Shown: positions 33,333 to 60,382 of the stretch, piece after piece
How positions within the stretch are numbered: the stretch's first letter is position 1
Layout: each line of letters begins with the position of its first letter
Program-made: the position numbers and the translations under genes
Notes under the pieces: generated by a model
The model's input: the letters and a program-made list of their open reading frames with translations, nothing else
Database searches by the model: none
What the model was told of the DNA's origin: nothing
Virus record (IMG/VR): IMGVR_UViG_3300037761_000410
Span: 1 to 60,382 of that record
Strand: one strand, 5' to 3'
DNA: 60,382 nucleotides
Source of the DNA: a virus
Taxonomy: Duplodnaviria; Caudoviricetes

Positions 33333-35087
33333 CTACGTCGGGCAGGTGATGGTCTGCTGGTTGCCGGTCCGGCCGCTCGGGCAGATCGGCACCGTGTACA
33401 CCCGGCTGACCGGGCACATCTGGAGCACGGCCCAGCCGGTCTCCGTGAACAGGTGGGTGACCTGGTTGGTGGCCAGCTTGGTCGAGTCGTACACCGAGTT
33501 CAGGGTGATGACGTCGCTGACCGCGCGCACCCAGGTCCCGGCCGGGTAGACCAGGAACTGGAGCGAGATCGGCAGGTTGTTGATCGGGGTGTCGGCGCCG
33601 GGATAGCCCGAGGCCGCGCAGTTGGCGAAGGCGTCCTGCCAGTCGTACACGAACTGGGGCCGGGCGCCCCGGCAGGTGAAGCCGGCCATGATCTCGCTGT
33701 CGGCCAGGCAGATCATCTTCGAGTAGTCGCCGCCGTTACGCCGGATCCAGTCGGCACGCATCTGCTCCAGGATCCAGTACGGCAGGACGACCTCAAGCGT
33801 CGCGGCGCGGGCCAGCCGTAGACGGTACTTGATGTCCACGATGGCCATGCCCACCGCGCTGAGCACCTGAGACACCACCGACACGTCGGTGGCCCACGGG
33901 GCCGCGGCGGACAGGTTGACCGCCACCGAGCCGGTCACCACCGCCGCGATCTGCTCGCGGTTGATCTGGTGCGCCGAGGCCGCGAGCGCGCCGCGCACGA
34001 ACGTGGCGGTGAACTCGGGGTAGCCGCGGTTGGCCAGGATGTTGCCGGTCAGGCAGAGCCCGGTGACGCCCAGGCGGGTGTCCACGAACTCGGGGCAGGG
34101 GATCTCCAGGCAGGTCTTGGTCGGGGAGCCGGCCGCGACCTGAGCTTCAGTGAGGTTGAAGTAGCCGGTCGGGTTGGGCGCCGCCTCGGTGCAGGTGCCG
34201 AAGATGGTGTCGAACTCCAGGCCGGTGTTGTGCCGGACCCCGCCCCGGCGGGCCTGGGCCTCGGGGGCGTCCCACATGCCGTCGGTGGTGATCTGGAGGC
34301 AGATGTCGTAGTCGGTCTCCGACGGGGCGCACCAGCCGGCCGCGGCCACCAGGGCGTCCATGCCGGGACCGCCTTCGGCCACCAGCTGCTTGTGGCGCAG
34401 GTCGCCGGAGGCGATGAGGCTGCCGCCGGGCAGGCGGCGTTCGTCGACCAGGGCCAGCAGCTTCTCGTAGTCGCCGCGGTCGCCGTTGACGCTGTACTCG
34501 TCCGGGTAGTCCCGGACGAGCTGCGCGACCGGGTACATGATCGGCCCGGTGCCCATCCCGGCCGACAGCCGGCCGTGGCTGGCCGAGCGGGCCTCGAACG
34601 CCTTGGCCACGTCGAGCAGGCTGGTCAGGTGCTGGCCGGCCTCATAGTTGGGCACGCCGGCGGCGGCGACCAGGGTGGACCTGGTGACGCGGGCCGGCAG
34701 GGCGGCGCGCTCGGGGGTCTGTCCCACGATGTCGGACACCCTGACCTGGATGACTGGGGTGGCAGAGGCGACGACCGGCTCCGGGTCGGCCGGGGGGGTC
34801 TCGGCTGCTGGCTCCTCGGTGGCTGGCGTCTCTTCGGCCGGCTCTTCCGGGGTGGCGGACAGTGCGTCGAGGCGGCTGGCGCGGGTCTTGATGGCCTTGA
34901 TGGCGGCCGGCCCGTCGGTGCGGACGAACTTCTGGAGGGTCTCCAGGTGGGCCAGGTCCTCGTCGCTGACGGTGGCCGCGTCGACGGTGGACATGAGGGT
35001 GCTGTACTCGGCCTCAGCCTCGGCCAGCAGGCCGGTCAGGCCGGAGACGGAGTAGACGTCCAGCTTCTCGGGAACCTTGAATCGCAT
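33333..35087 (-). CDS. Major capsid (hexamer-type) protein with N-terminal scaffold region
   Basis: LVAAAGWCAPSETDYD, RGYPE, QFVYDWQ, TLNSVYDS..L.TN. Confidence 0.8.
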   Translation of the reverse strand: MRFKVPEKLDVYSVSGLTGLLAEAEAEYSTLMSTVDAATVSDEDLAHLETLQKFVRTDGPAAIKAIKTRASRLDALSATPEEPAEETPATEEPAAETPPADPEPVVASATPVIQVRVSDIVGQTPERAALPARVTRSTLVAAAGVPNYEAGQHLTSLLDVAKAFEARSASHGRLSAGMGTGPIMYPVAQLVRDYPDEYSVNGDRGDYEKLLALVDERRLPGGSLIASGDLRHKQLVAEGGPGMDALVAAAGWCAPSETDYDICLQITTDGMWDAPEAQARRGGVRHNTGLEFDTIFGTCTEAAPNPTGYFNLTEAQVAAGSPTKTCLEIPCPEFVDTRLGVTGLCLTGNILANRGYPEFTATFVRGALAASAHQINREQIAAVVTGSVAVNLSAAAPWATDVSVVSQVLSAVGMAIVDIKYRLRLARAATLEVVLPYWILEQMRADWIRRNGGDYSKMICLADSEIMAGFTCRGARPQFVYDWQDAFANCAASGYPGADTPINNLPISLQFLVYPAGTWVRAVSDVITLNSVYDSTKLATNQVTHLFTETGWAVLQMCPVSRVYTVPICPSGRTGNQQTITCPT

Positions 35088-35204: not shown

Positions 35205-35447
35205 TCACGCTTTCTTTATCAGTGACTCCTCGGGATATGGCGCGCCATCGTCGGATTTCCATTGGATGTCGTGGTCGCCCTCGAACGGCTCGCGATGGTC
35301 GAACCGCATGGTGATGATCTCCTGAGGGATGCCGTCCGGGAACGCGGAACACTTCGGCGTGGGCCTGTCTTCGATTTCCCCGGAGGCTGCGAACGGGCTC
35401 CTAAAATGTGCGCACACGTCGCACTGCGACACCGCGCCGATCGTCAT
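35205..35447 (-). CDS. Small Cys protein (C..C.H...C.AFPDGIP...DH..P..GD)
   Basis: ATGA-coupled behind the ART/peptidase gene. Confidence 0.7.
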   Translation of the reverse strand: MTIGAVSQCDVCAHFRSPFAASGEIEDRPTPKCSAFPDGIPQEIITMRFDHREPFEGDHDIQWKSDDGAPYPEESLIKKA

Positions 35448-38400: not shown

Positions 38401-40612
38401 TCTCGATGCTGCCGTCCAGCCTCTTGACACCCTCCCCCGGAGCGATGTCCCCGGTCAGGAGATCCATGAAGATCTCGTTCACCTCGCGCAGGGGCGATCC
38501 AGGCGGGGCGGTGACGCGGGCCTTGGTCCAGGCCCGGTGGAAAGCCTGACGCTCTTCGAGGGTGCCGATCTTCCGGCCGAGGGCGCCAGCGTCTGGCGCC
38601 GCCTCGGGCGCATTGCCCCTCCTTCCTATCTGGATATCAAGAACTCGCATTCCGTCGACGATCCGGTCATCCGTCACCGTCATAGCGAGCCCGCGCTCTA
38701 AAAGAATCTCTCTATTCGGGTCATCGTCCTCAAAGCCGCCGAGCCGAATGCCCTTTATGCCGCGAGGCACATCCACCCTGAGTAGGATTCCCGGTTTAGA
38801 GGTACTACTGGTACCACTACGTGCATAGTAAAGGGCAATGTCCCTTTCTGTTGACGTGGACATGAATCCGGGATCGTCGACCGTATGACCAGCAAGCGAG
38901 GCATCGCTAAACCAGCCAAGATTGTGCGGCCTCGCGATCCCTCGCCACACGCGTATATCCTCTCCCAGTGGAGAGGCGTCCATAATCTCATCGATAAGTC
39001 TAACGTTTTCCGAATTAGGATTTTCCCTCACCTTCCAGGGTGAAGCGTCACCAGACTCGGTGTTATAGTCGTCTAGGGCTTGCGCAGCCCGTCTAGCCTT
39101 TTCTGGAGACCACCCCTTAGGTAACTTCTCAAAGTCCATATAGATTTCTTGTTCCAGAATTGGCGCATCGGGGTTTCGGACTCTGGTTATCGTCTGCACG
39201 GGAGGCACGGCAAGCGCAAGAGTTCCCTCAGTAGGGGATTCCCCTCCCTCTGAAATCTTCTTTCCTCTTCCCCCGAGCAGGTGCGCCTTGATGTCCGCCT
39301 TCTTCTTTACCGTCGGCGGGACCTTGATCCCATGCTCCTTGGCGATCTGGCGCATCTGGGCGATGGTGGTCTTCGGGTTGTCCAGCTGGGTCACCGCGTC
39401 CGGCGACAGGTCGCCCTTGCTCTCGAACGGCTCGGCGCCGACAGTCCCGCTCTCGATCTGGTCGGCCAGCTGGGTGGCCTTGCGCGCCCGGTCCCGCAAC
39501 GCGCGGGCCTCCCCCGGCAGCGTGGCCGGCCGGGACGCGACGTCCTCGTTGCGTTTCGCCTCCCCCCGCAGCACCTCGACCGCCCGGCCTTTAGAGATCT
39601 GGTCACCCTTGAAAGCCACGGCCACCTCTTCGACGGTCAGCCCACGCGTCCGGGGTGCCGGTGCCGCCGGCGTCGGCGCTGCCGGGGCACCCGGCCCGCC
39701 GGCACCCTCGCCCACGCTGGTGCTGACCACCCGCTCCGTCCGGGGCGCCGGCGGCCCGGCCGGCGCCCGCATCCCCGGCACCGCCATGGGTGAACGGGTC
39801 TGCTCGATCGGGGTGCGGATCTGGAGATGCTCGGGCACCGCGGTGGACTGTGGCGCCCCCGGCGCCGGCGCCACCTCCTTCTGGATCGGCTCCGGGGTCT
39901 CGCCCGGGGTACGGGAAGTGGCGACGGCGGCCACGTAGAACCCGCCCCGGCCGTCCGGAGTGACCTTGGTGATCCGCAGCTCCTGGTCGCGGTCGAGGAT
40001 GACCCCCCGGTCGTTCGGCCCGTTGCCCGGGAACACGGCCTGGGTGCCTTTCGGCACCGCCACCGTCACCAGGACCGGGGCGCTGCCGATCGGAGTGCCC
40101 ACGTTGGCCGGGAAGTAGCCGCGGTCGGCGATCAGCTTGCCGGTGAAGTCTTCGATCCCGGCGTCGCCCTGCATGGTCTGCGGGGTGTGGCCGAACGCCT
40201 CCGGCCCCATCCGCCGGCTCACGATCAGGTCGTCCGGCAACGGTGCTTTCAGCTGGTCGAACCGGGTGACGAACGCCTTGGTCTTCTCGTCCATCGTCCC
40301 GGACCGCAGGCCGGCCTGTGCCTCGTGAAACCCTTCGATGGTGTCGGAGCTGACGGCCAGGCGGTCGCTGAACCAGGTCGTCCCGGACCCGCCACGCTGG
40401 TGACCGAACCGGGACCGCTTGGCGTGGTTGAAGGCATACTGCGAAGCCTGCTGGTCGGACTGGAAGGTGCGGGGCCGGAACCGGCCCAGGAAGCCGGTGA
40501 TCGCGTCGATGGCGGCGTCGGCCATACGCCAGGTCTTGCGGAACCGGCCATGGCTGTCACGCGGGTGGAGCAGCTCCTCCCGCGTGCCCCAGTGGTCACC
40601 GACACCCGCCAC
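35444..40612 (-). CDS. Large head-module protein: three VIP2-like ADP-ribosyltransferase domains, HeH/Rho-N-like repeats, C-terminal zincin
   Basis: VWRG..GFMSTS..NREILLERG; LWRG..GYLSTA..GEVLLGRG; degenerate first copy; HEFGH..SRYA..N..ELVAEAF; N-terminal HPRD..GRF. Confidence 0.8.
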   Translation of the reverse strand: MAGVGDHWGTREELLHPRDSHGRFRKTWRMADAAIDAITGFLGRFRPRTFQSDQQASQYAFNHAKRSRFGHQRGGSGTTWFSDRLAVSSDTIEGFHEAQAGLRSGTMDEKTKAFVTRFDQLKAPLPDDLIVSRRMGPEAFGHTPQTMQGDAGIEDFTGKLIADRGYFPANVGTPIGSAPVLVTVAVPKGTQAVFPGNGPNDRGVILDRDQELRITKVTPDGRGGFYVAAVATSRTPGETPEPIQKEVAPAPGAPQSTAVPEHLQIRTPIEQTRSPMAVPGMRAPAGPPAPRTERVVSTSVGEGAGGPGAPAAPTPAAPAPRTRGLTVEEVAVAFKGDQISKGRAVEVLRGEAKRNEDVASRPATLPGEARALRDRARKATQLADQIESGTVGAEPFESKGDLSPDAVTQLDNPKTTIAQMRQIAKEHGIKVPPTVKKKADIKAHLLGGRGKKISEGGESPTEGTLALAVPPVQTITRVRNPDAPILEQEIYMDFEKLPKGWSPEKARRAAQALDDYNTESGDASPWKVRENPNSENVRLIDEIMDASPLGEDIRVWRGIARPHNLGWFSDASLAGHTVDDPGFMSTSTERDIALYYARSGTSSTSKPGILLRVDVPRGIKGIRLGGFEDDDPNREILLERGLAMTVTDDRIVDGMRVLDIQIGRRGNAPEAAPDAGALGRKIGTLEERQAFHRAWTKARVTAPPGSPLREVNEIFMDLLTGDIAPGEGVKRLDGSIEIDREDLAKASPGDREQLTKSIEAKEKVIEFLRGHFGGEGEKEAPGTPGPAEVRYAARVRNLTDQDAIIEALQGADVTTLRRTADELNMRLPAGLRTASKIRLHIAQTRVLFHRRGGERQFPRQRELAPGVALDRLEGEQGGPLAAFMVRPGDRVLVDDQWRDVRAVGTSSNNVRFYDNADRRDESTMIATFRMTDGVPTMRHDWESVNDPSLRPLLTPAKKVAPAKAVDSGPPSLDDPKITIAQLRQIAKDRGVKVPSSITRKADIRAFLLGKKEGDAPGAVTVPEKAIVRRSTRPSYLDIENSLLLDKYAESLGLDIDRLMDPSRTQMRPMGAPLEEQRPVGFLFELVTDGLKSGRITQQDAIENLRRIPARVKVDQGHAREHIARMGRDRALPYYLAIERDAPAAIEAATKLADALETLKLPRRKRAPTIGDLEMDEVTDDIDEARFAPPSSRGGSFDRPSPKGGLVLHRGQVVPESFHHPLSGMMLNSDVNPPARPGLTPEENRALDLYVSAIVADPLNAALRNGTEPPTVDLITLGERKPVDLRDVQHHLDRVIADSELSRDTTLWRGTLIRPADLGKLQRGALITEPGYLSTAVEERLARNIIQWRKRNAPAHRKPVLFKILTEKGTHAAVGHEAAGEVLLGRGSRIQILRTENEGTSGLTVITALLVRDKGRRPAVTIEEDPLPKGLTPENLPGPDVDDDLEPLSMERLREIAERRGIKVPAGASRQEILDAINSGKSVSGGAMAGPGGTASATGVDTQVREVLAVATGHRSLARATQDEFKRITGRDLTVDLGTDPDFSLPTAKEHMEGILRAAEAWPDTDLREVRWFNAGIGDPWATGANQSIMFNSAYASKAGRERYLQELAAGVAGWDTPAGGFHPRGAGNPAAAAAHEFGHIVDADGAVHLKVLALVRRRAAADRVPPERLIRREVSRYAARNPTELVAEAFLDVHLNGDSAGQLSREIVRLLRETTSSRKLRP

Positions 40613-43038: not shown

Positions 43039-43761
43039 CTACCTCTCCTCGTTCATGATCACGAGATCGCATCGACAACCGCAAACCTCGTCCGCCGGCC
43101 CGAAAGGGTCGCCAGGGAACATGAGCGGGACGTCGCCCACCATGAACGGAGCCCAGAGGTCCCGCACGTCACCGTTCACCTCTCGATGGGTCTCGCGCAC
43201 CCTGGCGTCGTGCTCGGTGACCCAACGCTTGCGCAGTAGGCGCCCGGTCACCCGCGACTGCTCGATCCCAGCGGCCAAGGTGCCCGACCCGTAGGCCCTG
43301 GTGGTCTCGGTGACCGCGATGTTCTTTGCCCGGCCCGGCCAGTTGGGCGAACCCGACCAGGACAGAACATTGTCGATGCGTGCGGCCAGCTTCTCCGCGT
43401 CCTCGCCGGCATTGATGCCGTCGATCAGCTCGGCGAAGACCAGGTGGTACACCTCGTCGGGGATCCCCACCAGCAGGTTCTCGGTCTGGGCCAGGGTCGA
43501 CATGACGAAGGCGTGCCGGGACACCGGCGGGACGTCGGTCGCCTCGCTCCACGCCCCCATCGAGATCTTGCCGATCTCGGTGAGGATGGTGCCGACCTCG
43601 CCCCGCCAGTCGCCGGCCACCTGGGTCGCCCCGCTCGGGTCGGGCTGCGTCCGGGAGCTACGCCAGGGCGCCATGACCGCGTCGCGGGCCTTGGCCAGCC
43701 ACCGGCGCAGCGACGAGGCCACGACAGTCTCCAGGTGCCGTTCCGCTTCTTCATGAGACAT
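43039..43761 (-). CDS. MuF-like minor head protein
   Basis: RA..IA.TE, K.W...D.RVR.TH, FPGDP, CRC. Confidence 0.85.
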   Translation of the reverse strand: MSHEEAERHLETVVASSLRRWLAKARDAVMAPWRSSRTQPDPSGATQVAGDWRGEVGTILTEIGKISMGAWSEATDVPPVSRHAFVMSTLAQTENLLVGIPDEVYHLVFAELIDGINAGEDAEKLAARIDNVLSWSGSPNWPGRAKNIAVTETTRAYGSGTLAAGIEQSRVTGRLLRKRWVTEHDARVRETHREVNGDVRDLWAPFMVGDVPLMFPGDPFGPADEVCGCRCDLVIMNEER

Positions 43762-45664
43762 CGAAGAATCCCTGCCGGTGCAGATATTCCTGGAGCAGGC
43801 TCGGGCGGTGCGGGTGCGCCTTGGTCAGCAGCGTGACGCAGTAACGGTCCAGGCAGTCGCGTAGCGCCATGGTGTCCAGGTCCGGGTCGATCGGGCCGGC
43901 CAGCAACGTCAGGTAGTCCCAGGCGCCGGCGAGCAGCTTCGCGGCATGCTCGTCGTCGGCGACCGGGATGTGGGTGTGCAGCTCGTAGGGCACCACCCCG
44001 GGCCACTTGTCCCGGTTGTTGCGGTCCAGCAGCCGTTTGCCGGCCAGCTCCATGGCCCGGAACACGGTGGCGTTCGCGATGGCGAACACGCCCAGCGGGA
44101 CGGTGGCCGAGGCCACCACCGGCAGCGCGCTGGCGTTGGGGGCGGCCGGGCCGCCCGGGGCGTTGAGCGCGGTCGAGTCCACCGGCTCCGGTGGTAAATT
44201 TTGACCGGTCGCGGCCGGCTCGATCCCGGTCGGCGGGGCCGGCGGCAGCGCGGCGGCGTCGCCCGGCGACATGGGGACGGTGACCTGGTCGGGCGGGAGG
44301 ATCTTGTCGGTGTAGCCGGCCACCCTGCGCACGGCCGCGATCTGGAACAGGTTCGGGTCGCGGGTCATCAGTTCGCGGGTGAAGTACTTCAGCTCTTCTT
44401 CATCGGTCGGGATGTCGCCTTCACGGTAGCTGCCCGCGTCGAGCACGGCCTGGTTGGAGACGATGTGCTTCTCCCACAGGTCCAGGGTGTCCTTGAGCCT
44501 TTGTGGACGGACGGTGAGCGGGGCGGTGTCGAAGGCATAGACGTACCTATCTACATCCTCTCCGTTGTTTTTGAGGGCCGGTCGGAGGATGCCCTTGGTC
44601 AGGCCGTCCACGACGCGGGTCATCAACGGCTCGACGTGGATCTTGACCTGACCTTCGGAGATCTGGGTGGCGCCCCAGTGGTTCGCGTCGCCCGACCCGT
44701 GCAGCACCATCGGGTCGATGTCCATGGCCAGGGCGAAACGTTCGATGGCCTCCTTGCGTAGGTCCAGGGCCTGCTTGGACAGCTCCGACGTGAACTGGAT
44801 CAGCTCGATCTTGCCGAGGGCCTCCAGCGGCATCTCCACGAAAGTGGGCACCACGCCCGCCGCGGTGCCCTCGCCCTTCAGCGAGGCCGAGCCGGTCTTC
44901 ATCAACCGGGTGGTGAGCTGGTCCGCGCCGGACAACTCCTGGTCCTCGTCGGGGAAGCTGACCTCCTTCGGGATGGGGACCATCCCGGCCGACACCAGAC
45001 GGGAGTCGATCTGGGCGAACACGAACCTGGTCAGCCGCTCGATCTCCCACAACATCGGCATGGCCGCCCGGGTGGGGGAGTCGGGCCACAGGTGCCGGCG
45101 CGGGTGCGGGGTCCAGATCCTGATGACCACGTCCTTCTTCGGGTCCAGGTGCTCGCGGACGGTGTCGTCCTCAGTGTCATAGAGGTAGGCCAGCACGTTG
45201 CCGTTGAGGCCGTAGCGTTTCAGCTCCGAGCAGCTGACCACCATCCACTCGTCGTCCTCGCTACCGCTACGACCGACCACGTAGACGTCTCCGGCGATGG
45301 TGAGGTTGATCGCCAGCATCCGCAACGCCTCCGCGCGCGCGGCGGGGGAGCCGAAAAGCTGGTCGCTCAAGCCGGCGATCTTCTTGTTGGTGACCTCTTT
45401 CTTGATCCGGCCATACTCGTCGACCTCGGCCACATAGATGCGGACCCGACTGCATGCCGAACCCATCCAGTTGGCCACGAACCGCAGCTCGCCGATGATG
45501 TCGTACAGGCGCCAGGCCTCCTGCTGCCAGGTGTCGTCACCGAACTTGTACGTACGCCAGGACCGGCCGGACAGGTTGATCTGGGCCGCGGCGGCGACCA
45601 GGCTACGCGGATGCGGCGCTACGACCGCGACCTCTCGACTTCTCGCCGGCTTCGGCCATGCCAC
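43751..45664 (-). CDS. Portal protein
   Basis: Follows terminase; WQ.EAW..YD..GEL, RIW.PHPR...DSP, NHW. Confidence 0.8.
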   Translation of the reverse strand: MAWPKPARSREVAVVAPHPRSLVAAAAQINLSGRSWRTYKFGDDTWQQEAWRLYDIIGELRFVANWMGSACSRVRIYVAEVDEYGRIKKEVTNKKIAGLSDQLFGSPAARAEALRMLAINLTIAGDVYVVGRSGSEDDEWMVVSCSELKRYGLNGNVLAYLYDTEDDTVREHLDPKKDVVIRIWTPHPRRHLWPDSPTRAAMPMLWEIERLTRFVFAQIDSRLVSAGMVPIPKEVSFPDEDQELSGADQLTTRLMKTGSASLKGEGTAAGVVPTFVEMPLEALGKIELIQFTSELSKQALDLRKEAIERFALAMDIDPMVLHGSGDANHWGATQISEGQVKIHVEPLMTRVVDGLTKGILRPALKNNGEDVDRYVYAFDTAPLTVRPQRLKDTLDLWEKHIVSNQAVLDAGSYREGDIPTDEEELKYFTRELMTRDPNLFQIAAVRRVAGYTDKILPPDQVTVPMSPGDAAALPPAPPTGIEPAATGQNLPPEPVDSTALNAPGGPAAPNASALPVVASATVPLGVFAIANATVFRAMELAGKRLLDRNNRDKWPGVVPYELHTHIPVADDEHAAKLLAGAWDYLTLLAGPIDPDLDTMALRDCLDRYCVTLLTKAHPHRPSLLQEYLHRQGFFDVS

Positions 45665-46018: not shown

Positions 46019-47476
46019 TCAGGCAGGCATTCCCGGGAACCCGCCGCCACCGGCCAGCCGGGAGAGGTCGTACACCGACTGGTCCATGGTGAAGTCGAAC
46101 TTGCTCGGGTCGCTCAGTCCCATCCGCTTCTTCTCCCCGGCCATCAGATGGATCGCCGCGTGCACCATCGCGTCCATCCGGTCCGGGGAGTCCCGGGTGG
46201 AGATCGGGTCGAACAGCACGCACTGGTCCTCCAGGTCGTTGAGGTGCCCGACGAAGTGCAGCCGCCCCTGCTCGGAGCGCATCGCCACCGGCTCGGCCCG
46301 GGTCTTCTTGCCGTGCTTGGCGTGCACCGGCTTCAGCGGCGGGGACGTGCCGCGGGGGAACATGCCCTGCTCGACACACTCCTGGTAGGCGTCGTTCAGC
46401 ACTTCCTGGAGGTAGCGCTTGCCCAGGTTCTCCTCATAGACCAGGGTGTCGGCGGCGAACTCGGCCACCGCCCGCCACACGGTCAGGGCGGCGTCGCGGC
46501 CGGAGGACTGGGTGGTCCGGTCGGCCAGGACGTACAGGTGGTTGTCGGCGGAGCGGGCCACCACGACGATCCCGGTGAGGGCTTCCTCGCCGGTGAGGTT
46601 GGGGTCCATGCCGACGACGGTGGCCACGATGCCGTCGGGGACCTCCTCGACCCGGTGGTGGGCGATGTCGAGGCGCCGGAACAGCCCGCCGTCGGTCAGC
46701 TCCAGCAGCTTGCCGTACAGCTCCTGCTCGCCCAGGGAGGTGCCTTCGTACTGGCGTTTCAGCTCAGCCAGCATGAAGGGGCTGAGGTTGCTGGCGTTGT
46801 CGAAGGTGGAGCCGGTGATCACGTGCACGCCGCCGTCGTTGCGGGCCAGCCACTCGACCAGCAGCTTGATCGGCTTCGGGGTGGTGGTGATGAACGCCCG
46901 CGGCTGGTCGTCGATCAGGTCCGCCCGCAGGGCGGGCAGCAGCCCCTGGTACCAGGTCTCGTAGGGTTTCAACCATTTAGCTATTTCATCGCATAAGATC
47001 CCTGCGGCGTTGTAGCCGCGGCCGGTGTCAGGGCTGTCCGCCCCTTCGAAGTAGATCCGGGCGCCGCTGGGCAGCAGGATCATCGGGCGGGGGCTCTGCT
47101 TGTACCGGTGCTCGATCTTGCGCCGGCGTAGCACGTTGATCAGCCCGCTGGGACCTTCGGCGTTGATGGTCCGGGCGTCGCTGAGAGTGTCGGCCACGGC
47201 CAGCCACTCGGTGGGCACGCCGTGGCGGTCGAACGGGTGCTTGCGGACCTGGTCGACCAGCCACTCGGACCCGGCCCGGCTCTTGCCCGACCCGCGTCCA
47301 GCCATATATAGATAGATGAACACGGCCCCGGCTGGTGGGACCTGCTCGGGCCGGGCGGTGTACCACCATTCGCCGCGAGCCATCTCGGCCAGGACCTGTT
47401 CGGGGAGCGCCTCCAGGAACTGTCGCCGCTGGTCCGGGGGCAGGGTCGCGAGGCGCTCTTTGACGGACAGGGCCAC
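46019..47476 (-). CDS. Terminase large subunit
   Basis: AGRGSGKS, CDE, TTTPKP, STFDN..NL, GMDP, SPDRMDA. Confidence 0.95.
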   Translation of the reverse strand: MALSVKERLATLPPDQRRQFLEALPEQVLAEMARGEWWYTARPEQVPPAGAVFIYLYMAGRGSGKSRAGSEWLVDQVRKHPFDRHGVPTEWLAVADTLSDARTINAEGPSGLINVLRRRKIEHRYKQSPRPMILLPSGARIYFEGADSPDTGRGYNAAGILCDEIAKWLKPYETWYQGLLPALRADLIDDQPRAFITTTPKPIKLLVEWLARNDGGVHVITGSTFDNASNLSPFMLAELKRQYEGTSLGEQELYGKLLELTDGGLFRRLDIAHHRVEEVPDGIVATVVGMDPNLTGEEALTGIVVVARSADNHLYVLADRTTQSSGRDAALTVWRAVAEFAADTLVYEENLGKRYLQEVLNDAYQECVEQGMFPRGTSPPLKPVHAKHGKKTRAEPVAMRSEQGRLHFVGHLNDLEDQCVLFDPISTRDSPDRMDAMVHAAIHLMAGEKKRMGLSDPSKFDFTMDQSVYDLSRLAGGGGFPGMPA

Positions 47477-49976: not shown

Positions 49977-52391
49977 ATGAATATAGCAGAAGTCGCGAGA
50001 GCCTGGCGGGAAGCCGGCGTGGCGGTGCTGCCGATCCTGGCCAACGGAACGAAACGTCCCGCGGTGCGCTGGGCTCCATATCAGGTGGAGGCACCCACCC
50101 TCGGGCAGGTGGATCTCTGGTGGGGCAACGGCCGGGAGTACGGCCTGGCCCTGATCTGTGGCCAGGTGTCGGGCAACCTGGAGATGCTGGAGCTGGAAGG
50201 CCGGGTCGTCGACGCCGACTCCCTGACCAAGGTCGAGGCGGCTCTGGACTCTCTCGGCGGGCGCGACGTCTGGGAGTTCCTGAACTCTCCCGCCGGCTAC
50301 GTCGAGTGGTCGCCTTCGGGTGGGCTGCATTTCCTCTACCGGGTCAGCGACCACGAGGTCCCCGGCAATACCAAGATCGCCAAGGATGCCCAGCGCCTCG
50401 TGCTGGTGGAGACCAGAGGCGAAGGCGGATACGTGATCGCAGCCCCCACCTCCGGCTTATGTCATCCTACCGGGGAGCCCTGGACCCTGGTGACAGGAAT
50501 GTTCGGCCAGTTACCCACCCTCACCTGGGCGCAGCGCGAGATCCTGCACCGGGGCCTCCGTCTGGCTTTAGACTGGGTGGAGCCGAGGGCCGTGGCGGTG
50601 CCAACCTCCCCAGGTCCGCTTGCCTACCACGGTCCCGGCGTCACCCCCGGCGACGACTTCGAGGCCCGCACCGACTGGGCGGACATCCTTGAGCCCCACG
50701 GCTGGCAGCTGGAGTCCCGCCACGGCCGGGAGCGGTACTGGACCAGGCCCGGCAAGGAGACCCGCGACGGGGCGTCGGCCACCACCGGCCGGGACCCGGC
50801 CCGGGACCGGCTGTACGTGTTCAGCACCAGCACCTGCTTCGCGCCGGAGCACTCGTACACCAAGTTCGGCGCCTATGCGTTGATCAATTTCAATGGGGAC
50901 CATTCGGCCGCGGCCCGCGAGCTGGTCCGGCTGGGCTACGGCGAACGCCGCGACCCGGCCGAGGGGATCATCGCCGGGGAGCCGCTGGACCCCGGCCCGG
51001 TGCCACGCAAGACCTACAGCCTGGACGAGGTCGGCAACGCCGACCGGCTGGCCGACAAGGCGAAAGGCCGGTTTCACTATGTGGCCGAGGAGAAGCAGGT
51101 CGTCCGGTGGGACGGACGGGTGTGGACCGAGGACTTCGACGGAGCGCTGTGGCGGGAGGCGATCCGGGCCACCGAGGACATGGCCCGCCAGGGCAGCGCC
51201 ATCGACGACGAGCTGCTGGTCAAGTGGGCGAAGAGCAGCCGGAGCAAGGCGAAGCTGAACTCGGCGACGGAGATGGTGCGGATGGTGTCAGGCTTCACCA
51301 GGCGGGTGACCGACTTCAACCCCCACCGGCACTTGCTGAATGTCCAAAATGGAGTGTTGAACCTGCGGACCATGGAGTTCGTCGACCATGACCCGGCGTT
51401 GCTCATGACCCGGCTGTTCGGCGCCTCCTACGACCCCGACGCCAAGTGCCCGGCGTTCGAGTCGTTCATGGCCGACGTGCTCCCGGACGAGGAGATGCGC
51501 GGCTACGTCCAACGCGCCCTGGGCTACAGCCTGCTGGGGGACGTGGACCAGCGGGCCATGTTCCTGATCTACGGGCCGTCCGGCACCGGCAAGAGCACCC
51601 TCATGGAGACGATGCGGGCACTGTTCGGCGACTACGGCACCACCGCGGCGGCCGGGACCTTCCGGGCGCGTGGGCGCGACTCGGCACCCACCAACGACCT
51701 GCACGACCTGCGGGGCAAGCGGTTCGTGACCACGTCGGAGACGGCCGAGTCGGCCACCTACGACGAGGACACCCTCAAGCGGCTGACCGGACGGGACCGC
51801 ATCCGTACCCGCGAGCTGTACCAGTCCAACCAGGAGTGGACGCCCGAGTGCACGCTGTGGCTGGCGACCAACCATCCGCCGAAGTTCACCTCCGACGACG
51901 ACGCGATCTGGAAGCGGGCCAAGCTGATCCCGTTCCTGACCCAGTTCGGCGAGGCCGAGGTGGCGGATCTGGCCCGGGTGTCGTTGATCCCCGAGGCGGC
52001 CGGGATCCTGAACTGGCTGCTGGCCGGGTTGGCCGACTACCAGGCCCGGGGGCTGGACGAGCCGGAGCAGGTGCGGGTGGCCGCGTCGGAGCAGCGCCGC
52101 CAGGCGGACTCGGTGGCCCGGTTCCTGGACGACCGGGAGGCGGACGGGATCCTGATCGAGGTCCCCGAGGTGATGATCAAGGTGGGTGACCTGCACATGA
52201 TGTACCTGGAGTGGGCGCGTACCAGTGGCGAACGGGGGGTGGGGACGAGACGGTTCATGAACCGGCTCACGTCGCTCCGACCACAGGTGGAACATATGCG
52301 GATAAATGGGGCATCGTTCTTAAAAGGCATTTCCCGGTCGGCCGTGTCGAGCCTGCTGGGGACGATGCTCATCCCTCAACCTGACCCGTAG
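49977..52391 (+). CDS. Bifunctional primase-polymerase fused to D5/P4-type SF3 helicase
   Basis: K.P...W..YQ, SPSGGLH, ETRGEGGYV..P, YW.RPGK, GPSGTGKST, LWLATNH.P. Confidence 0.92.
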   Translation: MNIAEVARAWREAGVAVLPILANGTKRPAVRWAPYQVEAPTLGQVDLWWGNGREYGLALICGQVSGNLEMLELEGRVVDADSLTKVEAALDSLGGRDVWEFLNSPAGYVEWSPSGGLHFLYRVSDHEVPGNTKIAKDAQRLVLVETRGEGGYVIAAPTSGLCHPTGEPWTLVTGMFGQLPTLTWAQREILHRGLRLALDWVEPRAVAVPTSPGPLAYHGPGVTPGDDFEARTDWADILEPHGWQLESRHGRERYWTRPGKETRDGASATTGRDPARDRLYVFSTSTCFAPEHSYTKFGAYALINFNGDHSAAARELVRLGYGERRDPAEGIIAGEPLDPGPVPRKTYSLDEVGNADRLADKAKGRFHYVAEEKQVVRWDGRVWTEDFDGALWREAIRATEDMARQGSAIDDELLVKWAKSSRSKAKLNSATEMVRMVSGFTRRVTDFNPHRHLLNVQNGVLNLRTMEFVDHDPALLMTRLFGASYDPDAKCPAFESFMADVLPDEEMRGYVQRALGYSLLGDVDQRAMFLIYGPSGTGKSTLMETMRALFGDYGTTAAAGTFRARGRDSAPTNDLHDLRGKRFVTTSETAESATYDEDTLKRLTGRDRIRTRELYQSNQEWTPECTLWLATNHPPKFTSDDDAIWKRAKLIPFLTQFGEAEVADLARVSLIPEAAGILNWLLAGLADYQARGLDEPEQVRVAASEQRRQADSVARFLDDREADGILIEVPEVMIKVGDLHMMYLEWARTSGERGVGTRRFMNRLTSLRPQVEHMRINGASFLKGISRSAVSSLLGTMLIPQPDP

Positions 52392-55404: not shown

Positions 55405-57450
55405 TTACCGCAAAGTGGACGAGCCGGCGTCGGTGAACGTGTTGCCCGACGCCCCCACCTCGCTGATGTTGTGGAACTGCCAGCTGTACCCGGTCGCGGT
55501 CAGGGTCAGACGCAGCACCCCGAAGGTGTTGCAGTTGAACACCTGCGTGCCCGGAACCGCGCTGTAACCACAGTAGTGATTCTTGCCGCCGGTGCCGACC
55601 ACGAAGTAGCGAACCCCGTCGAGGGTGGGGCCGTTGGCCCCCATCGGCTGGAACCGCTCATAGTCGTGGTCATGTCCACTGAGGACCAGCTGGACGTCCC
55701 GGTCGGCCACCAGGACCGACTTCAAATAGGTGTGGCCACTGGAGTTGCCATGCTGGCCCGAAGACCAGCTCGGATGATGGTAGTAGACCAGGGTGGGCCT
55801 GCCGTTGTTCGCGGCCAGGTCGACCAGCAACCATGTCATCATCGGGTTGCCGGCGTTGCAACCTCCGACCTTGGAGCAGTCCGAGTCCAGCGACACAAAG
55901 TGCCACGCACCCAGGTCCCAGCTGTAATACATCTGGTTGTTGCTGGTCGTGTCGGAACCGATCGAACTCAGTCGCGACCCGAAGTAGTCGCGATACCCCT
56001 GCGCGTTCCCAGTGAGCCATTCATGGTTGCCTGGAGCCGGATACACCGAACCCCGATGCAGACCCCAGGCATCACAGTTGCCGGGACCGGCGCAGGTGTT
56101 GCGACCCCAGCCCGCGTTGTACTGACCCAGCGAGCCCGACTCGTACTGGTTGTCGCCGAGAGTCAATATCGCGTTAGGACTGTATTTGGTGAGAAGCTCG
56201 GCGGTGTAACCATCCTGGCCAGAGCTGCCACCGTATCCGTTGCACCCGTCACAGACGATGTCCCCGGCCGCCATCACCGTCACACCCGGTCCAGTTGGAG
56301 TTGGACTTGGACTGGTCGGAGTTGGACTTGGCGAACTTGTGGTCGACGTGGACGGACCTGGTGTCGACGTGGATGAACTTGGTGTCGGGCTCGGTGAACT
56401 TGTGGTCGAACTCGATGGTGACGGAGTTGGACCTGAAGTTGACGTAGGCGAACTTGATGGTGACGTGGTCGGACCTGGAACCGCTCCGCCGACCAGCTGG
56501 CGGCGCAGCTCGTCCGCGTAGGTCCCCCAGCCCGAGCCGGACTGCCAGGACCCGCTGGGCTCCACGCTGGTCGCCTCGCCCCACTCGTTCCAGCTGGTGA
56601 CCAGCTTCCACTGGGCCGGGCTGGCCTTCAAGTGGGCCACGTTCTGCGCCCAGGCCGCCGGGTCGCGGGCCAGCCGAGGGCTGGCCTCACTGTGGTGCCA
56701 GAAGCCGGGGCTGATGTTGAAGCTCCACGGCAGGTGCACCGCCTCGCGCTCCGCCGGGCCGTACTGGTGCCAGCTGGAAGGCTGGTCGAAGCAGGAGGCG
56801 AAGCCGGGGAACACCTTCATGTTCACGTACCAGTTGGCGAAGCCGTTGGTGGCGGTCTTCCACTTCGTCACCTCGCCGCAACCGGTCGCGCCGGCGTTGT
56901 AGACGAAGATGACGCGCTTTCCGCCGATCCGCACAGCCGAGCCTGGGCTGGCGTCCGCCAGGGCTCCGAGGTGCGCCAGGTCGGCCTGGATGGTGACCAC
57001 CGTCGGGTTGGCGTACCCCTCGGGCTCGTAGTAGGGGATCACGCCCAGGCCCAGCGGGGCCGCGGCGGCGTGCAGGACGGGGAAGCGGGTGGCCTCGCCG
57101 TGCTGGCCGCGGCCCCACCAGGAGGCGATGACGGCCTGCATGCCGGTGCCCTTGATCCCGGCCAGCTGCATCGCCACGTCGGTGGCGTTGTCGCTGTCGA
57201 AGCCGGAGGCGGCCGGGCGGTAGTGGTCGTCGGCGTGGCGGAAGCTGTCGTCGTAGAAGAACATCGCCGTGACCGGGGTGGCGTAGTCGCTGGCCCTGGC
57301 GGTGCCGGGCACGACGGCCCAGGCCAGTCCTACGACCAGCAGGCCGGCCGCGCCGAGGACGGCGTAGCGGCGGGCGTCGCCGGGACTCTCGTGCTTGCCA
57401 TGGTAACGCAGTTCGATCGATTTGAGTTTCTTGACCAAACGAGTGATCAT
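55405..57450 (-). CDS. Exported glycoside hydrolase (GH99/GH71-like) + Ser/Thr/Pro linker + calcineurin-like metallophosphoesterase
   Basis: TM/signal; ASWWG, YYE, SWNEWGE; AAGD, LGDNQY, PGNHE, HHP, SGHDHDYERF. Confidence 0.8.
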   Translation of the reverse strand: MITRLVKKLKSIELRYHGKHESPGDARRYAVLGAAGLLVVGLAWAVVPGTARASDYATPVTAMFFYDDSFRHADDHYRPAASGFDSDNATDVAMQLAGIKGTGMQAVIASWWGRGQHGEATRFPVLHAAAAPLGLGVIPYYEPEGYANPTVVTIQADLAHLGALADASPGSAVRIGGKRVIFVYNAGATGCGEVTKWKTATNGFANWYVNMKVFPGFASCFDQPSSWHQYGPAEREAVHLPWSFNISPGFWHHSEASPRLARDPAAWAQNVAHLKASPAQWKLVTSWNEWGEATSVEPSGSWQSGSGWGTYADELRRQLVGGAVPGPTTSPSSSPTSTSGPTPSPSSSTTSSPSPTPSSSTSTPGPSTSTTSSPSPTPTSPSPTPTGPGVTVMAAGDIVCDGCNGYGGSSGQDGYTAELLTKYSPNAILTLGDNQYESGSLGQYNAGWGRNTCAGPGNCDAWGLHRGSVYPAPGNHEWLTGNAQGYRDYFGSRLSSIGSDTTSNNQMYYSWDLGAWHFVSLDSDCSKVGGCNAGNPMMTWLLVDLAANNGRPTLVYYHHPSWSSGQHGNSSGHTYLKSVLVADRDVQLVLSGHDHDYERFQPMGANGPTLDGVRYFVVGTGGKNHYCGYSAVPGTQVFNCNTFGVLRLTLTATGYSWQFHNISEVGASGNTFTDAGSSTLR

Positions 57451-57545
57451 GATTCCTCAGGTTTTTCGTAGGGCGCCCGTCGAAAGACTCCCCCGTGCCG
57501 GGCGTGGTGCGTCACGCGCCGATATATGCGCGTGCGTCTAACCCG

Positions 57546-58193
57546 TTAGATGACGCGGCGGGCCATATAGAAGCCGTACAGCTTCTGCACCCGTACCTGC
57601 GCGCCGGAGTGCGGAGAGGCGATCATCATGTTGTTACCGAGGTAGATCGCGACATGGCCGTTCTGTGGCCATACGATGTCGCCAACGTGCAGGTTCGCGC
57701 GGGAGACGTGGCGTCCGTACGCTTTCATCGCGTCGGACTGATGGGGTAGGCGCACTCCGACCTGCCGGAAGGCCACCATCACGAGGCCGGAGCAGTCCCA
57801 CCGGCTTGGGCCAGCGGCACCCCATAGGTACCAGTCACCGATCTGTGCCTTGGCGAACGCCACCACTTTCGCGGCCCTCGACGTATTCGTCGAGGGGTTG
57901 GGCTTGGCGGCGGTGGCGACCCGGGAGCTGGCAGCCCCCTTGGCGCAGGGGACCTTGAGCCGCTGACCCGGATAGATCAACCAGGTGACATGGTTCGCTG
58001 TAGCGATCTCTTTCCATCGATCGCCATTGCCGCATAGATTCTTGGCGATGCCGTAGAGGCTTCCGTGGGCGGAGGGGTATGAGGTCACGGTGACCGTGAC
58101 CGGGGACGAAGGCAGGGCCTGTCTACTTTCGACAGTGCCGGCTGCTGGCAGGCCAAGGGCCAGCGCCAGCGCGGCTACGAACGAGCCTAACAT
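57546..58193 (-). CDS. Secreted LysM + NlpC/P60 peptidoglycan endopeptidase
   Basis: SLYGIA...W.EIA..N...IYPGQ.L; Y.WGA.GP..WDCSGL, GHVAIY. Confidence 0.9.
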   Translation of the reverse strand: MLGSFVAALALALGLPAAGTVESRQALPSSPVTVTVTSYPSAHGSLYGIAKNLCGNGDRWKEIATANHVTWLIYPGQRLKVPCAKGAASSRVATAAKPNPSTNTSRAAKVVAFAKAQIGDWYLWGAAGPSRWDCSGLVMVAFRQVGVRLPHQSDAMKAYGRHVSRANLHVGDIVWPQNGHVAIYLGNNMMIASPHSGAQVRVQKLYGFYMARRVI

Positions 58194-58358
58194 CACAACT
58201 CCTTTACCTGTATGGGGCATGAGCCTTGCCGGCCCATGATAGCCCAGGGAGGCCCCGGAAGCTACGAATGTCGACGCACCTCCGAGAGAATGATGAAGTT
58301 ATCTATCTACCCAGGTAGGAGGCCATTTCTAAAAGGGGGATCTGGATATTGACCCCGA

Positions 58359-58580
58359 TCACGACCGCGACCACGACCACGACCGCGACCACGACCGCGA
58401 CCGCGACCACGACCCCGACCGCGACCGTGACCGCGACCACGGCCCCGACCACGACCACGACCACGACCGCGACCGCGACCCCGACCGCGACCCCGACCGC
58501 GGCCCCGACCGCGACCGCGACCGCGACCGCGACCACGACCGCGACCACGACCACGACCGCGTGGCATACATGATCAACAT
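58359..58580 (-). CDS. Ser-X dipeptide-repeat peptide 1 (MLIMYATRSWSWSRS...)
   Basis: GAGGGGG RBS; GGTCGN hexamer array; 73 aa. Confidence 0.55.
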   Translation of the reverse strand: MLIMYATRSWSWSRSWSRSRSRSRSGPRSGSRSGSRSRSWSWSWSGPWSRSRSRSGSWSRSRSWSRSWSWSRS

Positions 58581-58597
58581 GACTGGCCCCCTCTCGC

Positions 58598-58672
58598 TCA
58601 CCGCGACCACGACCGCGACCACGACCGCGACCGCGACCACGACCGTGACCACCCGGCATACATGATCAACAT
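58598..58672 (-). CDS. Ser-X dipeptide-repeat peptide 2 (MLIMYAGWSRSWSRSRSWSRSWSR)
   Basis: GAGGAG RBS; same leader as peptide 1; 24 aa. Confidence 0.5.
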   Translation of the reverse strand: MLIMYAGWSRSWSRSRSWSRSWSR

Positions 58673-58744
58673 GACTGGCTCCTCGCTTCCAAGGCAAAGG
58701 GCCGACCCCAGGACACGCGGAGCCGGCCCCTGCCGGGCTGGGTG

Positions 58745-59032
58745 CTACTTCTGGATCCTGGGCAGCTCGTGAAGCCACTCACAGACGTCCACGACAGCCC
58801 CGCGGGCCACCAGGCACTCGCCCGGGTACGGCTCGACCTCACGGAGGCTGCCAGTGGTCAGGGAGTCCGCCCAGCGCTCGCTCTCGGCGATCCAGGCCGC
58901 GTCGGCCAGGACCAACCAGTGGTCGTCGACCTGGACGAGCCGGCCGGTGTAGTGGTAGGTGACGGTGCGGACGAAGACGTTCTTGTCCTGGTAGCGGTCA
59001 AGCAGGCTTGAACTCAGGTTGGGACCAGACAT
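58745..59032 (-). CDS. Sm/LSm-like fold phage protein
   Basis: NVFVRTVTYHYTGRL...LVL.DAAWI..; AAGGAG RBS; also in frame with upstream ORF starting 59260. Confidence 0.55.
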   Translation of the reverse strand: MSGPNLSSSLLDRYQDKNVFVRTVTYHYTGRLVQVDDHWLVLADAAWIAESERWADSLTTGSLREVEPYPGECLVARGAVVDVCEWLHELPRIQK

Positions 59033-59260
59033 GCTATCTCCTTGAATAAATTGATTGATCTCTTTTTGTGACAACTCTTCGAGCGGGCCGTACTTCCGGA
59101 GCAGGTCCTCCCAGGTTCGAGGCTGGAGGCCAAACTGGGTAAGGCAGCTCCACATCCCGTCCTCGGTGCGAACGTTGATGTCGCCACCGTCGTCCCTGAC
59201 GAAGAGCACGTCCCCAGGCCACATGGTGTCGGAGGTGTCGCTCCAGGTCCTCGTCCCCAT
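59033..59260 (-). CDS. Small domain (D.GGD.....W...TW.DL...YGPL), reading through into the Sm-like ORF
   Basis: AAGGAGG RBS; resembles module in 5138-5497; no stop before 58745. Confidence 0.45.
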
Positions 59261-59531
59261 GGTCCAGCCTCCTTGCGTCGATCGACCTAAAAGGGTCTTG
59301 AATATTGATACTGCGGCCGGCCCTCCGGCGGCCAGGTCACCCTCCCATCGGCCAGGACAGCACCACGGGCCGTCTGCCGCTCGTCGCAACCCTCGCTGTG
59401 GGCGTGGGGCTCATATCTTCGGTCGGCCTCCCAGGCGGTTCCACAGGCGCCGCAGCAGTAAGCCGCGGCACGGGTGGTGGAACGGTCGCACTGCCGCGAG
59501 TCGCAAGCCTTGAGACCCTTAGAAGGAGTGA

Positions 59532-59744
59532 TCACCGCGACCACGACCCCGACCACGACCGCGACCCCGACCGCGACCACGACCACGACCCCGACCGCGA
59601 CCGCGACCACGACCACGACCCCGACCGCGACCACGACCCCGACCACGACCGCGACCCCGACCACGACCCCGACCGCGACCGCGACCACGACCGCGACCAC
59701 GACCCCAACCACGACCACGACCGCCCGGCATGCCTGATCAACAT
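59532..59744 (-). CDS. Ser-X dipeptide-repeat peptide 3 (MLIRHAGRSWSW...)
   Basis: AAGGGAG RBS; GGTCGN hexamer array; 70 aa. Confidence 0.55.
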   Translation of the reverse strand: MLIRHAGRSWSWLGSWSRSWSRSRSGSWSGSRSWSGSWSRSGSWSWSRSRSGSWSWSRSGSRSWSGSWSR

Positions 59745-59898
59745 GATCGACTCCCTTCTATAGCCAGAGGATGATGCCGATACTGATCAGCACGGTGACC
59801 AGAACGCCCGCGGCGGGCGTGATGGGCTCCCTCGGTTTGCCGATCAAGGCCACGGTCGCGAGGGTGGGGACCCCACAGGTACGGCAGCAGGAAGATCT

Positions 59899-60382
59899 TC
59901 ATGCGTGAGCCCACCATTCGCTGGCTTCCTTGAGTCGCTGGTACGCCTCAGCGACCTCGGGCGGCATCAGGCTCAGCAAGAGTTCGTCGGCCTGCGCGTG
60001 AGCCAGTTCGGGGTCCAGCGCCCCAATGAGGGCAGTTAACCGGTCAACCACCACCGTCCGCTCGCCAGGCTCCGGTGGCTCCACGGGCTCCGGCTCCTCC
60101 ACCTCGGTCGTGACGAGCGCGCAGGCTACACCCTCTATCTCGTTCAGACGCTCCCAGGTCCTGGAAGGCCAAGCCATCACCGTGCTGACCCATCTGGTTT
60201 CGATACCGACTGAAGTCGAGAAGTTCACCCGTTGCCAGGCGATCCCCTGCCGGTCCAGTACTACCGACCCGATCCCCGGCTCCGCCACCGCATTCCGCTG
60301 CCAGGCGTCCCCGTCCCGGTCCACCACCACCGACCCCGCTCCCGGCTCCGGCGGCACCACCGCCACCTTCGGCGCCGGCTCC
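59899..60382 (-). CDS. 5'-truncated paralogue of 5138-5497 with repeated EPG..VV.DR modules
   Basis: Frame open to window end; first 97 nt identical to 5281-5377. Confidence 0.65.
   Translation of the reverse strand, partial: EPAPKVAVVPPEPGAGSVVVDRDGDAWQRNAVAEPGIGSVVLDRQGIAWQRVNFSTSVGIETRWVSTVMAWPSRTWERLNEIEGVACALVTTEVEEPEPVEPPEPGERTVVVDRLTALIGALDPELAHAQADELLLSLMPPEVAEAYQRLKEASEWWAHA

Follow-up and report, generated by a model that had tools for sequence, protein, structure and literature searches.

What do three hexanucleotide arrays that a tailed phage carries around one small gene encode, and is the arrangement peculiar to a single genome or part of something more widespread? The question is raised by the complete IMG/VR virus record IMGVR_UViG_3300037761_000410 (60,382 bases, 100% complete according to CheckV), hereafter the window, in which three repeat mini-genes (SX1, SX2 and SX3; Table 1) and an Sm-like gene lie near the right end within a block of minus-strand genes. 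An earlier reading of this DNA, made from its letters alone (the sequence-only reading), had proposed that the arrays are translated into Ser-Arg, Ser-Trp and Ser-Gly dipeptide repeats that belong with the Sm-like protein. The analysis presented here makes it almost certain that the locus is an example of a conserved two-gene phage cassette, consisting of a small gene for a protein of Sm/LSm fold and, in one to several copies, a gene encoding a leader followed by Ser-X repeats. There is likewise very little doubt that Trp, Arg and Gly take the X position about equally often and in near-random order, after a leader that is short and conserved.

In the window, Tandem Repeats Finder places period-6 arrays at 58351-58561 (35.2 copies) and 58600-58650 (8.5 copies), and gives the third array, 59534-59722, at periods of 12 and 30. 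The unit is (GGTCGN)n, and the frame TCG-NGG on the minus strand specifies Ser alternating with Trp, Arg or Gly. Matches to a three-unit pattern, GGTCGNGGTCGNGGTCG, number 54, on the minus strand only and always within the three arrays, against 0 in 100 dinucleotide-preserving shuffles. All three mini-genes stand behind a purine-rich ribosome-binding site and close with TGA where the array ends. They open with a common start, ATGTTGATCA, which is read as MLIMYA in SX1 and SX2 and as MLIRHA in SX3. The sequence-only reading had described three GGTCGN arrays, each with its own ribosome-binding site and a shared leader that sets the S-R/S-W/S-G frame, giving products of 73, 24 and 70 amino acids, and this description was borne out. 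Its statement that N follows a non-periodic order held less well: N is indeed T, C or G in the perfect units of the window, from which A is absent, but array 3 has a substructure with periods of 12 and 30 (86-89% matches). Block copies are visible in the window arrays, and SX2, together with its leader and ribosome-binding site, is a 92-nucleotide duplicate of the start of SX1 (90% matches by Tandem Repeats Finder). The TGA stop of SX1 sits within its array, leaving about 1.5 units beyond it. Besides leader and repeats the peptide contains no further domain, and neither a signal peptide nor a hydrophobic segment is present.

The protein encoded between the arrays had been predicted in the sequence-only reading to have an Sm fold, and three lines of structural evidence point the same way for its C-terminal 95 residues. 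The Sm/LSm fold is recognized by a helix at the N terminus and, after it, a beta-sheet of five strands with a strong bend. The AlphaFold2 (AF2) model, built from an alignment of 59 relatives, has a predicted local distance difference test score (pLDDT) of 92.5 and a predicted template modelling score (pTM) of 0.81. All top matches of this model in a Foldseek comparison with the PDB were Sm/LSm proteins (best E 1.8e-4). VIA-align, which does not rely on Foldseek, was run against 48,161 chains and ranked archaeal SmAP1 (1loj_A) best (Z 10.4, root-mean-square deviation 2.6 A over 73 residues), the first 14 rows all being Sm/LSm. Within the family alignments the Gly provisionally assigned to the Sm1 motif is invariant, G-R-G precedes the last strand in the majority of subfamily A, and a conserved insertion carries the motifs AAWIADTGRF and EVEP. 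Searches with the Sm-like protein returned no match to the Hfq Pfam profile at E <= 0.1 and none in PHROG or in a PDB profile search, only unnamed viral clusters in the ESM Atlas, and only weak fold matches, to uncharacterised proteins, in BFVD. The C-terminal domain is thus predicted to adopt an Sm/LSm fold while standing, by sequence, outside any curated family. The N-terminal 76 residues of the 171-residue open reading frame (ORF) have no homologue among proteins of 41-133 amino acids. An internal ATG at 59032 lies behind AAGGAG, so that the 95-residue form alone could be made; a relative of 94% identity is called as 95 amino acids, whereas the call of the window record itself is 171.

Evidence for the pairing of the two genes was obtained from both directions. 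A scan of IMG/VR for six GGTCGN units found at least 119 stretches, and all array-based counts given here refer to the matches listed. When ORFs near these arrays were clustered, the dominant family was Sm-like and included the ORF of the window; it was present in 72 of 120 array-bearing records, and in 69 of the 72 it lay upstream of the array on the same strand, with a median gap of 36 nucleotides. A round of profile searching established a true Trp- and Arg-containing S-X run in 95 of the 120 records, among which 67 have the Sm-like ORF, 22 have too little upstream DNA and six are without it, that is, 67 of 73 evaluable loci. In the other direction, an Sm-like peptide pattern identified 271 relatives in IMG/VR, and the best 80, all of them from subfamily A and not drawn at random, were examined. 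A strict S-[WRG] run followed within 200 nucleotides downstream in 55 of the 80 and occurred elsewhere on the same strand in five; the rest end too early (five), have none by the strict rule (13) or are without a called Sm ORF (two), and eight of the 13 carry degenerate, interrupted S-X peptides. Of 78 loci, 62 have a closed mini-gene of at least six units after the Sm-like gene, and in 44 of these 62 viral loci its start lies on the Sm stop codon (ATGA or GTGA). Species-representative prokaryote genomes contributed 26 further loci, nearly all in metagenome-assembled bins and from many phyla; here the repeat gene is present in 22 of the 24 evaluable loci and its start overlaps the Sm stop in 11 of the 22. 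As, in most relatives, the start of the second gene falls on the stop of the first, the two genes appear to be translationally coupled. The association of the peptides with the Sm-like protein that had been proposed for the window is therefore supported by co-occurrence in all three sets. Indeed, two findings named beforehand as fatal to that proposal, an absence of conserved linkage in other phages and an ORF without Sm fold, were both looked for: linkage proved to be conserved and the fold is predicted to be Sm-like.

The cassette is self-contained and has no recurrent third gene. Across 75 upstream and 65 downstream neighbours no Pfam family appears more than twice, and the neighbours are mostly replication, recombination and regulatory genes, with a few for lysis or packaging. 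A conserved zinc-finger-like or Cys-rich partner, such as is seen in the window and in GenBank record MW202573.1, was considered and rejected, being present in two of 21 relatives. At one IMG/VR locus (L142) the canonical leader, MSAAVLRAGYD, is kept after the Sm-like gene and is followed by non-repetitive sequence, which looks like a decayed or replaced repeat gene.

What is conserved in the second gene? For the S-X frame, 64% of 140 arrays have the stop codon no more than 12 nucleotides from the array end, the corresponding figures for the other two frames being 12% of 132 and 10% of 131. Upstream of the repeats the typical leader is M-N-x-A-x-L-R-x-G-F/Y-D/E, many leaders ending in Asp or Glu, and a second leader class is rich in Lys, Gln and Tyr (..SKQKYRS). 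The leader is conserved as amino acids while its codons vary; the Gly, for instance, is GGC in 11, GGT in six, GGA in six and GGG in four cases across 26 genes. The array-end stop in the S-X frame, the ribosome-binding site and ATG, and this protein-level conservation together suggest that the mini-genes are translated, as had been proposed. Several loci have two to six tandem mini-genes, and the repeat part comprises 10-50 dipeptide units, with lengths up to about 100 amino acids.

Within the repeats it is composition that persists. Over 1,693 units X is Arg in 0.34, Trp in 0.29, Gly in 0.29 and Lys in 0.008, Lys being rare although AAG is one transition from AGG, and adjacent X residues are close to independent (chi-square 13.7, 4 degrees of freedom). 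Arg and Trp together make up about 31% of repeat residues (Arg approximately one residue in six, Trp one in seven), every Trp is flanked by Ser, and Lys and acidic residues are nearly absent. In GGTCGN arrays N is T in 0.31-0.33 and C or A in 0.32-0.37 across the bins of guanine-plus-cytosine (GC) content from 0.4 to 0.7 with more than six units, while the split between C and A, which is synonymous (CGG/AGG), tracks genome GC. In loci selected by the nucleotide pattern, five of the six positions are fixed even in AT-rich genomes, which at first suggested a constraint on DNA or RNA. The idea that the TCG-NGG nucleotides are themselves constrained, for a tRNA-specific or dual-coding reason, was dropped, however, as loci selected by homology use other Ser codons: each array keeps to a single one, and which one it is varies from array to array (TCG, AGC, AGT, TCT, TCA or TCC). 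Relatives thus encode the same peptide without sharing a hexamer. We are highly confident, on these grounds, that selection acts on the composition of the peptide and not on a nucleotide motif, and that evolution of the arrays proceeds through the copying of single hexamer units and of larger blocks.

The family of Sm-like proteins is a large one, and its pairing with the repeat gene recurs in thousands of uncultured phages. A search with the single 171-residue window protein found no relatives; alignments of the family were more productive, the pattern search using the narrower alignment (A2) since the mixed one (A1) is too diverse. Among 8,000 candidates scored from a 90%-identity library, 6,864 proteins reached E <= 1e-5, none of them with a Pfam domain, and at 50% identity there are at least 2,633 representatives with E <= 0.001 and 1,802 with E <= 1e-10. 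By comparison, one of 50,697 GenBank phage records contains the family, namely MW202573.1, a metagenome-assembled myovirus; its two genes of the pair, both annotated as hypothetical proteins, overlap by ATGA and have a repressor and a helicase for neighbours. At least five of the top 150 family representatives (P0124, P0125, P0127, P0132 and P0161) have tandem double Sm-like domains in one chain, and longer fused forms account for two of 7,999 candidates. In one metagenomic protein of 236 amino acids (P0122), a single cluster that could be a gene-call artefact, a stretch carrying PF07068, which we take to be the T4-type major capsid protein family, is joined to a subfamily-B Sm-like domain. 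When four sediment metagenome runs (X1-X4) were compared with 57500-60382, summed contig depth over the arrays exceeded the depth over the flanks by a factor of about 10-130. Loose ends numbered in the hundreds, and the short-read contigs of a near-identical sediment run stop at the arrays. This indicates that many other genomes in the sediment samples carry similar arrays and that the arrays break assemblies, which is probably why many IMG/VR matches lie at contig ends. In the literature within reach (supplements and subscription journals lay outside it) neither the peptides nor the gene pair was found described. We regard the pair as a new kind of phage gene cassette, and its existence is well supported.

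How might the two products act? In the mechanism that we favour, the Sm-like protein would form a ring onto which the peptide docks through its leader; the peptide would supply a disordered, multivalent tail with Arg and Trp as stickers and Ser and Gly as spacers, and RNA, or nucleic acid generally, would be the target that the complex binds or condenses in the early or replication phase of infection. In disordered RNA-binding proteins, Arg and aromatic residues count as stickers and Ser and Gly as spacers. Such a tail would follow the principle of the RG tails of eukaryotic SmD1, SmD3 and LSm4, or of the disordered C-terminus of Hfq, transferred to a gene of its own. The Sm-like protein is the sole conserved partner of the peptide, the leader is the only part of the peptide that is sequence-specific, and the remainder is kept in composition only, with residues of both kinds; for these reasons the arrangement is favoured. 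Members with tandem double domains would fit a ring-forming protein, although this is a hint only, and a target as universal as RNA or nucleic acid would fit hosts from many phyla. The leader class differs between the two Sm-like subfamilies, a pattern that common descent would also give. Prediction of a complex between two Sm-like copies (A5) and peptide residues 1-40 (A6) gave no answer (score 0.02, mark 0.32) and is evidence neither way. The suggestion in the sequence-only reading that the peptides bind RNA or separate into a distinct phase would follow from their composition and from the predicted fold of the partner. A ring bearing detachable, separately encoded tails with Arg and Trp, and having RNA or nucleic acid as its target in early infection, is therefore put forward tentatively, as one possibility that probably falls short in some respect, and cassette and mechanism taken together, though our best explanation of the locus, still have somewhat less than an even chance of being right as a whole. 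More speculative, and in our judgement unlikely, is the extension that phages of many bacterial phyla carry such a 'split Sm protein', with a fast-evolving tail, and that in the infected cell it builds RNA-protein condensates which capture or protect RNA, as a viral counterpart of eukaryotic Sm/LSm bodies, with tail length and copy number tuned by slippage of the hexamer.

Several other roles could be imagined for an Arg/Trp-rich peptide of this type. It might, with or without the Sm-like protein, be an effector of anti-defence or host takeover that blocks nucleic-acid-sensing or RNA-guided defence, for instance by using its Trp residues as GW/WG 'Ago hooks' that bind Argonaute, or by sequestering host Hfq and thereby small-RNA regulation. 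Trp flanked by small residues is the rule for Ago hooks, and here Ser flanks every Trp; moreover, the cassette is self-contained with variable flanks, is located in early or replication regions, undergoes rapid turnover of its arrays and changes in copy number, and occurs in phages binned with many phyla. It would, however, be surprising for an inhibitor of a specific target to retain a single composition in hosts as diverse as these, and no defence gene or target was identified, although padloc or an anti-defence library was not searched; this role seems distinctly unlikely. We regard as improbable that the product is a membrane-active or lysis-related cationic peptide resembling Trp/Arg antimicrobial peptides, for which the Sm-like protein would be a chaperone or antidote until release. 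The share of Arg and Trp would suit such a peptide, a LysM-NlpC/P60 peptidase gene lies just downstream in the window and phage lysozymes are two of the 65 downstream neighbours, but the absence of a signal peptide or hydrophobic segment, neighbourhoods of replication and recombination genes instead of lysis cassettes, and lengths to about 100 residues with alternating Ser, which presumably set it apart from known peptides of that class, all argue otherwise. More doubtful again is a virion-internal or nucleoid-condensing, protamine-like polycation whose leader is a targeting or cleavage signal. The peptide is Arg-rich and acid-free, many leaders end in Asp/Glu, and there is the metagenomic fusion of a PF07068 stretch with a family-B Sm-like domain; against this, the fusion is a single case that may reflect gene calling, Arg is only about one residue in six, and the pair lies outside the structural module in the window and in most relatives. 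A precursor of a modified peptide, with leader and repetitive core as in ribosomally synthesized and post-translationally modified peptides, had also been raised for these arrays. The layout and the tandem precursor copies are reminiscent of such systems, yet among 75 neighbours upstream and 65 downstream no recurrent modifying enzyme adjoins the pair, the peptide's sole conserved partner has a predicted Sm fold and the window leader is just six residues long, so that this proposal is very hard to sustain.

It should be emphasized that several observations weigh against our preferred reading, in which an Sm-like protein acts with a translated Ser-X tail. Pfam LSM (PF01423) is missed by the Sm-like domain (E 0.042, 14.0 bits against a cut-off of 23.4, residues 10-51 only), and the family alignments show no conservation at what we take to be the uridine-binding Asp/Asn position of the Sm1 loop. 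The window copies are themselves atypical, with a leader of six residues and their own ribosome-binding sites, as is their layout, since SX2 starts 72 nucleotides past the Sm-like stop without overlap and one copy lies upstream of the Sm-like gene. At the nucleotide level, the X position is almost always written NGG (GGG for 211 of 220 Gly, CGG or AGG for 189 of 197 Arg) and TCG is by far the commonest Ser codon, part of which selection on the peptide leaves unexplained. RNA from TCG-type arrays pairs with itself through G-U pairs (UCGYGG with itself) to form long hairpins (z -5.8 for 58359-58600 and -2.9 for 59532-59770). The NGG rule may have a simple origin: Trp is encoded only by TGG, Arg and Gly units could arise from TGG by first-position changes, and unit turnover would erase neutral third-position variants. 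These features, with five of the six positions fixed in GGTCGN arrays, are what would be expected if the repeat acted as RNA or DNA, as an array of protein-binding hexamers or a structured RNA, possibly a ligand of the Sm-like ring, in an incidental open frame. Such a view was also anticipated by the sequence-only reading, as a second repeat-coded RNA based on CGACC. Because the Ser codon changes, however, neither the hexamer nor the self-pairing is common to relatives, and arrays with other Ser codons cannot form these hairpins. The array-end stop in the S-X frame only, the conservation of the leader as protein and a W:R:G ratio independent of GC also speak against it, and Rfam gave 0 matches at E <= 0.1 in 57000-60382. 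The repeat acting as nucleic acid is thus highly unlikely and, as the sole function, largely refuted, while there is room for an added RNA-level role or constraint. The least credible alternative is that the product is poly(Gly-Arg), read in the GGT-CGN frame with N as a silent third position. An ATG does precede all three window arrays in that frame (ATGCC starts; MPRGRG..., MPGGRG...), but AGC-, TCA-, TCT- and AGT-type arrays do not encode Gly-Arg there, its stop lies a median of 60 nucleotides beyond the array, and a start codon is available for 45 arrays compared with 106 in the S-X frame; we give this frame practically no credence.

The Ser-X genes and the Sm-like gene are set in a genome with the PHROG-matched gene set of a tailed phage (Table 1), and by PHROG placement the pair lies outside its structural module.

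Table 1 Positions of the genes, domains and signals of the window that are discussed in the text
Feature	Position	Strand	Description and basis
SX1	58359-58580	-	MLIMYATR + repeats, 73 amino acids; internal ATG of a listed ORF of 139 amino acids
SX1 ribosome-binding site	58587-58593	-	GAGGGGG; 6 nucleotides before ATG, 4 nucleotides past SX2 stop
SX2	58598-58672	-	MLIMYAGW + repeats, 24 amino acids; listed ORF
SX2 ribosome-binding site	58679-58684	-	GAGGAG; 6 nucleotides before ATG
Sm-like ORF	58745-59260	-	171 amino acids; orphan N-terminal 76 residues + Sm-like domain
Predicted Sm/LSm-fold domain	58745-59032	-	95 amino acids; AF2, Foldseek, VIA-align, family alignments A1 + A2
Cys-rich ORF	59287-59535	-	82 amino acids; GTG start overlaps SX3 TGA (GTGA)
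SX3	59532-59744	-	MLIRHAGR + (S-[W/R/G]) repeats, 70 amino acids, TGA at array end; listed ORF
SX3 ribosome-binding site	59751-59757	-	AAGGGAG; 6 nucleotides before ATG; read from sequence
LysM + NlpC/P60 peptidase	57546-58220	-	secreted-looking; Pfam NLPC_P60 E 2.2e-22; just downstream of mini-genes
Tape measure	26855-28870	-	PHROG
Major head protein	33336-35087	-	PHROG
Portal	43754-45664	-	PHROG
Terminase	46022-47476	-	PHROG
Primase/helicase	49977-52388	+	PHROG

Within the region, DNA similarity to cultured phages (Streptomyces phages BRock and Galactica) is confined to the peptidase gene. The Cys-rich ORF has no match in Pfam or PHROG, and the ORF of 155 amino acids upstream could be assigned to no family by Pfam, PHROGs or a PDB sequence search. 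A scan of 57400-60382 for consensus promoters and terminators found none. The minus-strand motif CAATAT-CA-GA-CCC-TTTTAG is present in similar copies at 58330-58355, after SX1, and 59288-59313, after the Cys-rich ORF, and may be left over from a duplication or serve as a common signal. A diversity-generating retroelement, which would pair a reverse transcriptase with a template repeat and vary at template adenines, was considered for the arrays and rejected: an RVT_1 match, as a mark of reverse transcriptase, is absent across the whole 60,382-base record, and A stands at the N position in none of the three copies. Elsewhere in the window, a long degenerate run of short repeats at 5670-7870, with units ending in CCGAC or TCGAC (a 25-nucleotide family nine times and a 40-nucleotide family four times), falls mostly within a 665-residue ORF without PHROG match (5670-7664, plus strand); it is probably the 'large array' mentioned in the sequence-only reading. 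The head module contains an ORF of 1,722 amino acids (35447-40612, minus strand) with weak PHROG matches to an ADP-ribosyltransferase family and endonuclease VII, and intergenic repeats with GC-rich hairpins occur at 3096-3189 and 3475-3568 (94 nucleotides, 90% identity) and at 500-535 and 864-899 (36 nucleotides, 97% identity).

If the proposed mechanism is correct, the cassette would be a very common phage device that has been overlooked because cultured phages lack the pair, and its peptide component would be unusually simple in being coded by composition. It would provide a natural setting in which to test how Arg/Trp stickers and Ser/Gly spacers work in bacteria, alongside a new class of Sm-fold proteins. 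The arrays also provide an explanation for a recurrent repeat that breaks assemblies of viral metagenomes. Even with another mechanism, the conserved coupling of a folded protein to a hyper-repetitive mini-gene, which gene callers and family databases mostly miss, is a new type of phage gene pair.

Similar components, differently arranged, are found in characterized systems. The eukaryotic proteins SmD1, SmD3, SmB and LSm4 carry Arg-Gly-rich tails, and the phage cassette likewise combines an Sm-fold core with a low-complexity, Arg-containing disordered sequence spaced by Gly and Ser; in contrast to those tails, the putative tail of the phage comes from a separate, apparently translationally coupled gene with its own leader, in which Ser alternates with Trp, Arg or Gly and which is often present in several copies. 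Bacterial Hfq is an Sm-like hexamer that functions as an RNA chaperone and has a disordered C-terminal region. The phage protein shares the small Sm-like fold (VIA-align Z 6.6-7.3 to Hfq chains), but its model lies nearer to the Sm proteins of archaea and eukaryotes (Z 9-10.4), it has no match to the Hfq Pfam profile, and it contains the AAWIADTGRF/EVEP insertion. Predicted LSm-like folds are also reported for the phage T4 proteins GoF, MotB.1 and Frd.2, which, according to the abstract, are encoded in the early region, are suspected of a role in RNA stability and are confined to the Tevenvirinae (PMC12152347). As that abstract mentions no repeat mini-gene partner, the T4 proteins, although the nearest precedent in phages, are by description set apart from the cassette (PMC12152347). 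The phage peptide, for its part, contains Ser-Arg dipeptides and so resembles Ser-Arg/Arg-Ser (SR/RS) domains, although Ser-Arg accounts for only about a third of its units (X is Arg in 34%, Trp in 29% and Gly in 29%) and it has no RNA-recognition motif or other domain. In splicing factors and viral nucleocapsids, SR/RS domains are Ser-Arg runs within disordered regions associated with nucleic acid. A final parallel is with the hexanucleotide repeats of C9orf72, which give rise to poly-GR and poly-PR dipeptide products. There too a six-base repeat is read as an Arg-containing dipeptide polymer; in the phage cassette, in contrast, the polymer has a dedicated start, leader and stop in one frame, thousands of phages keep this frame, and the composition of the product is selected.

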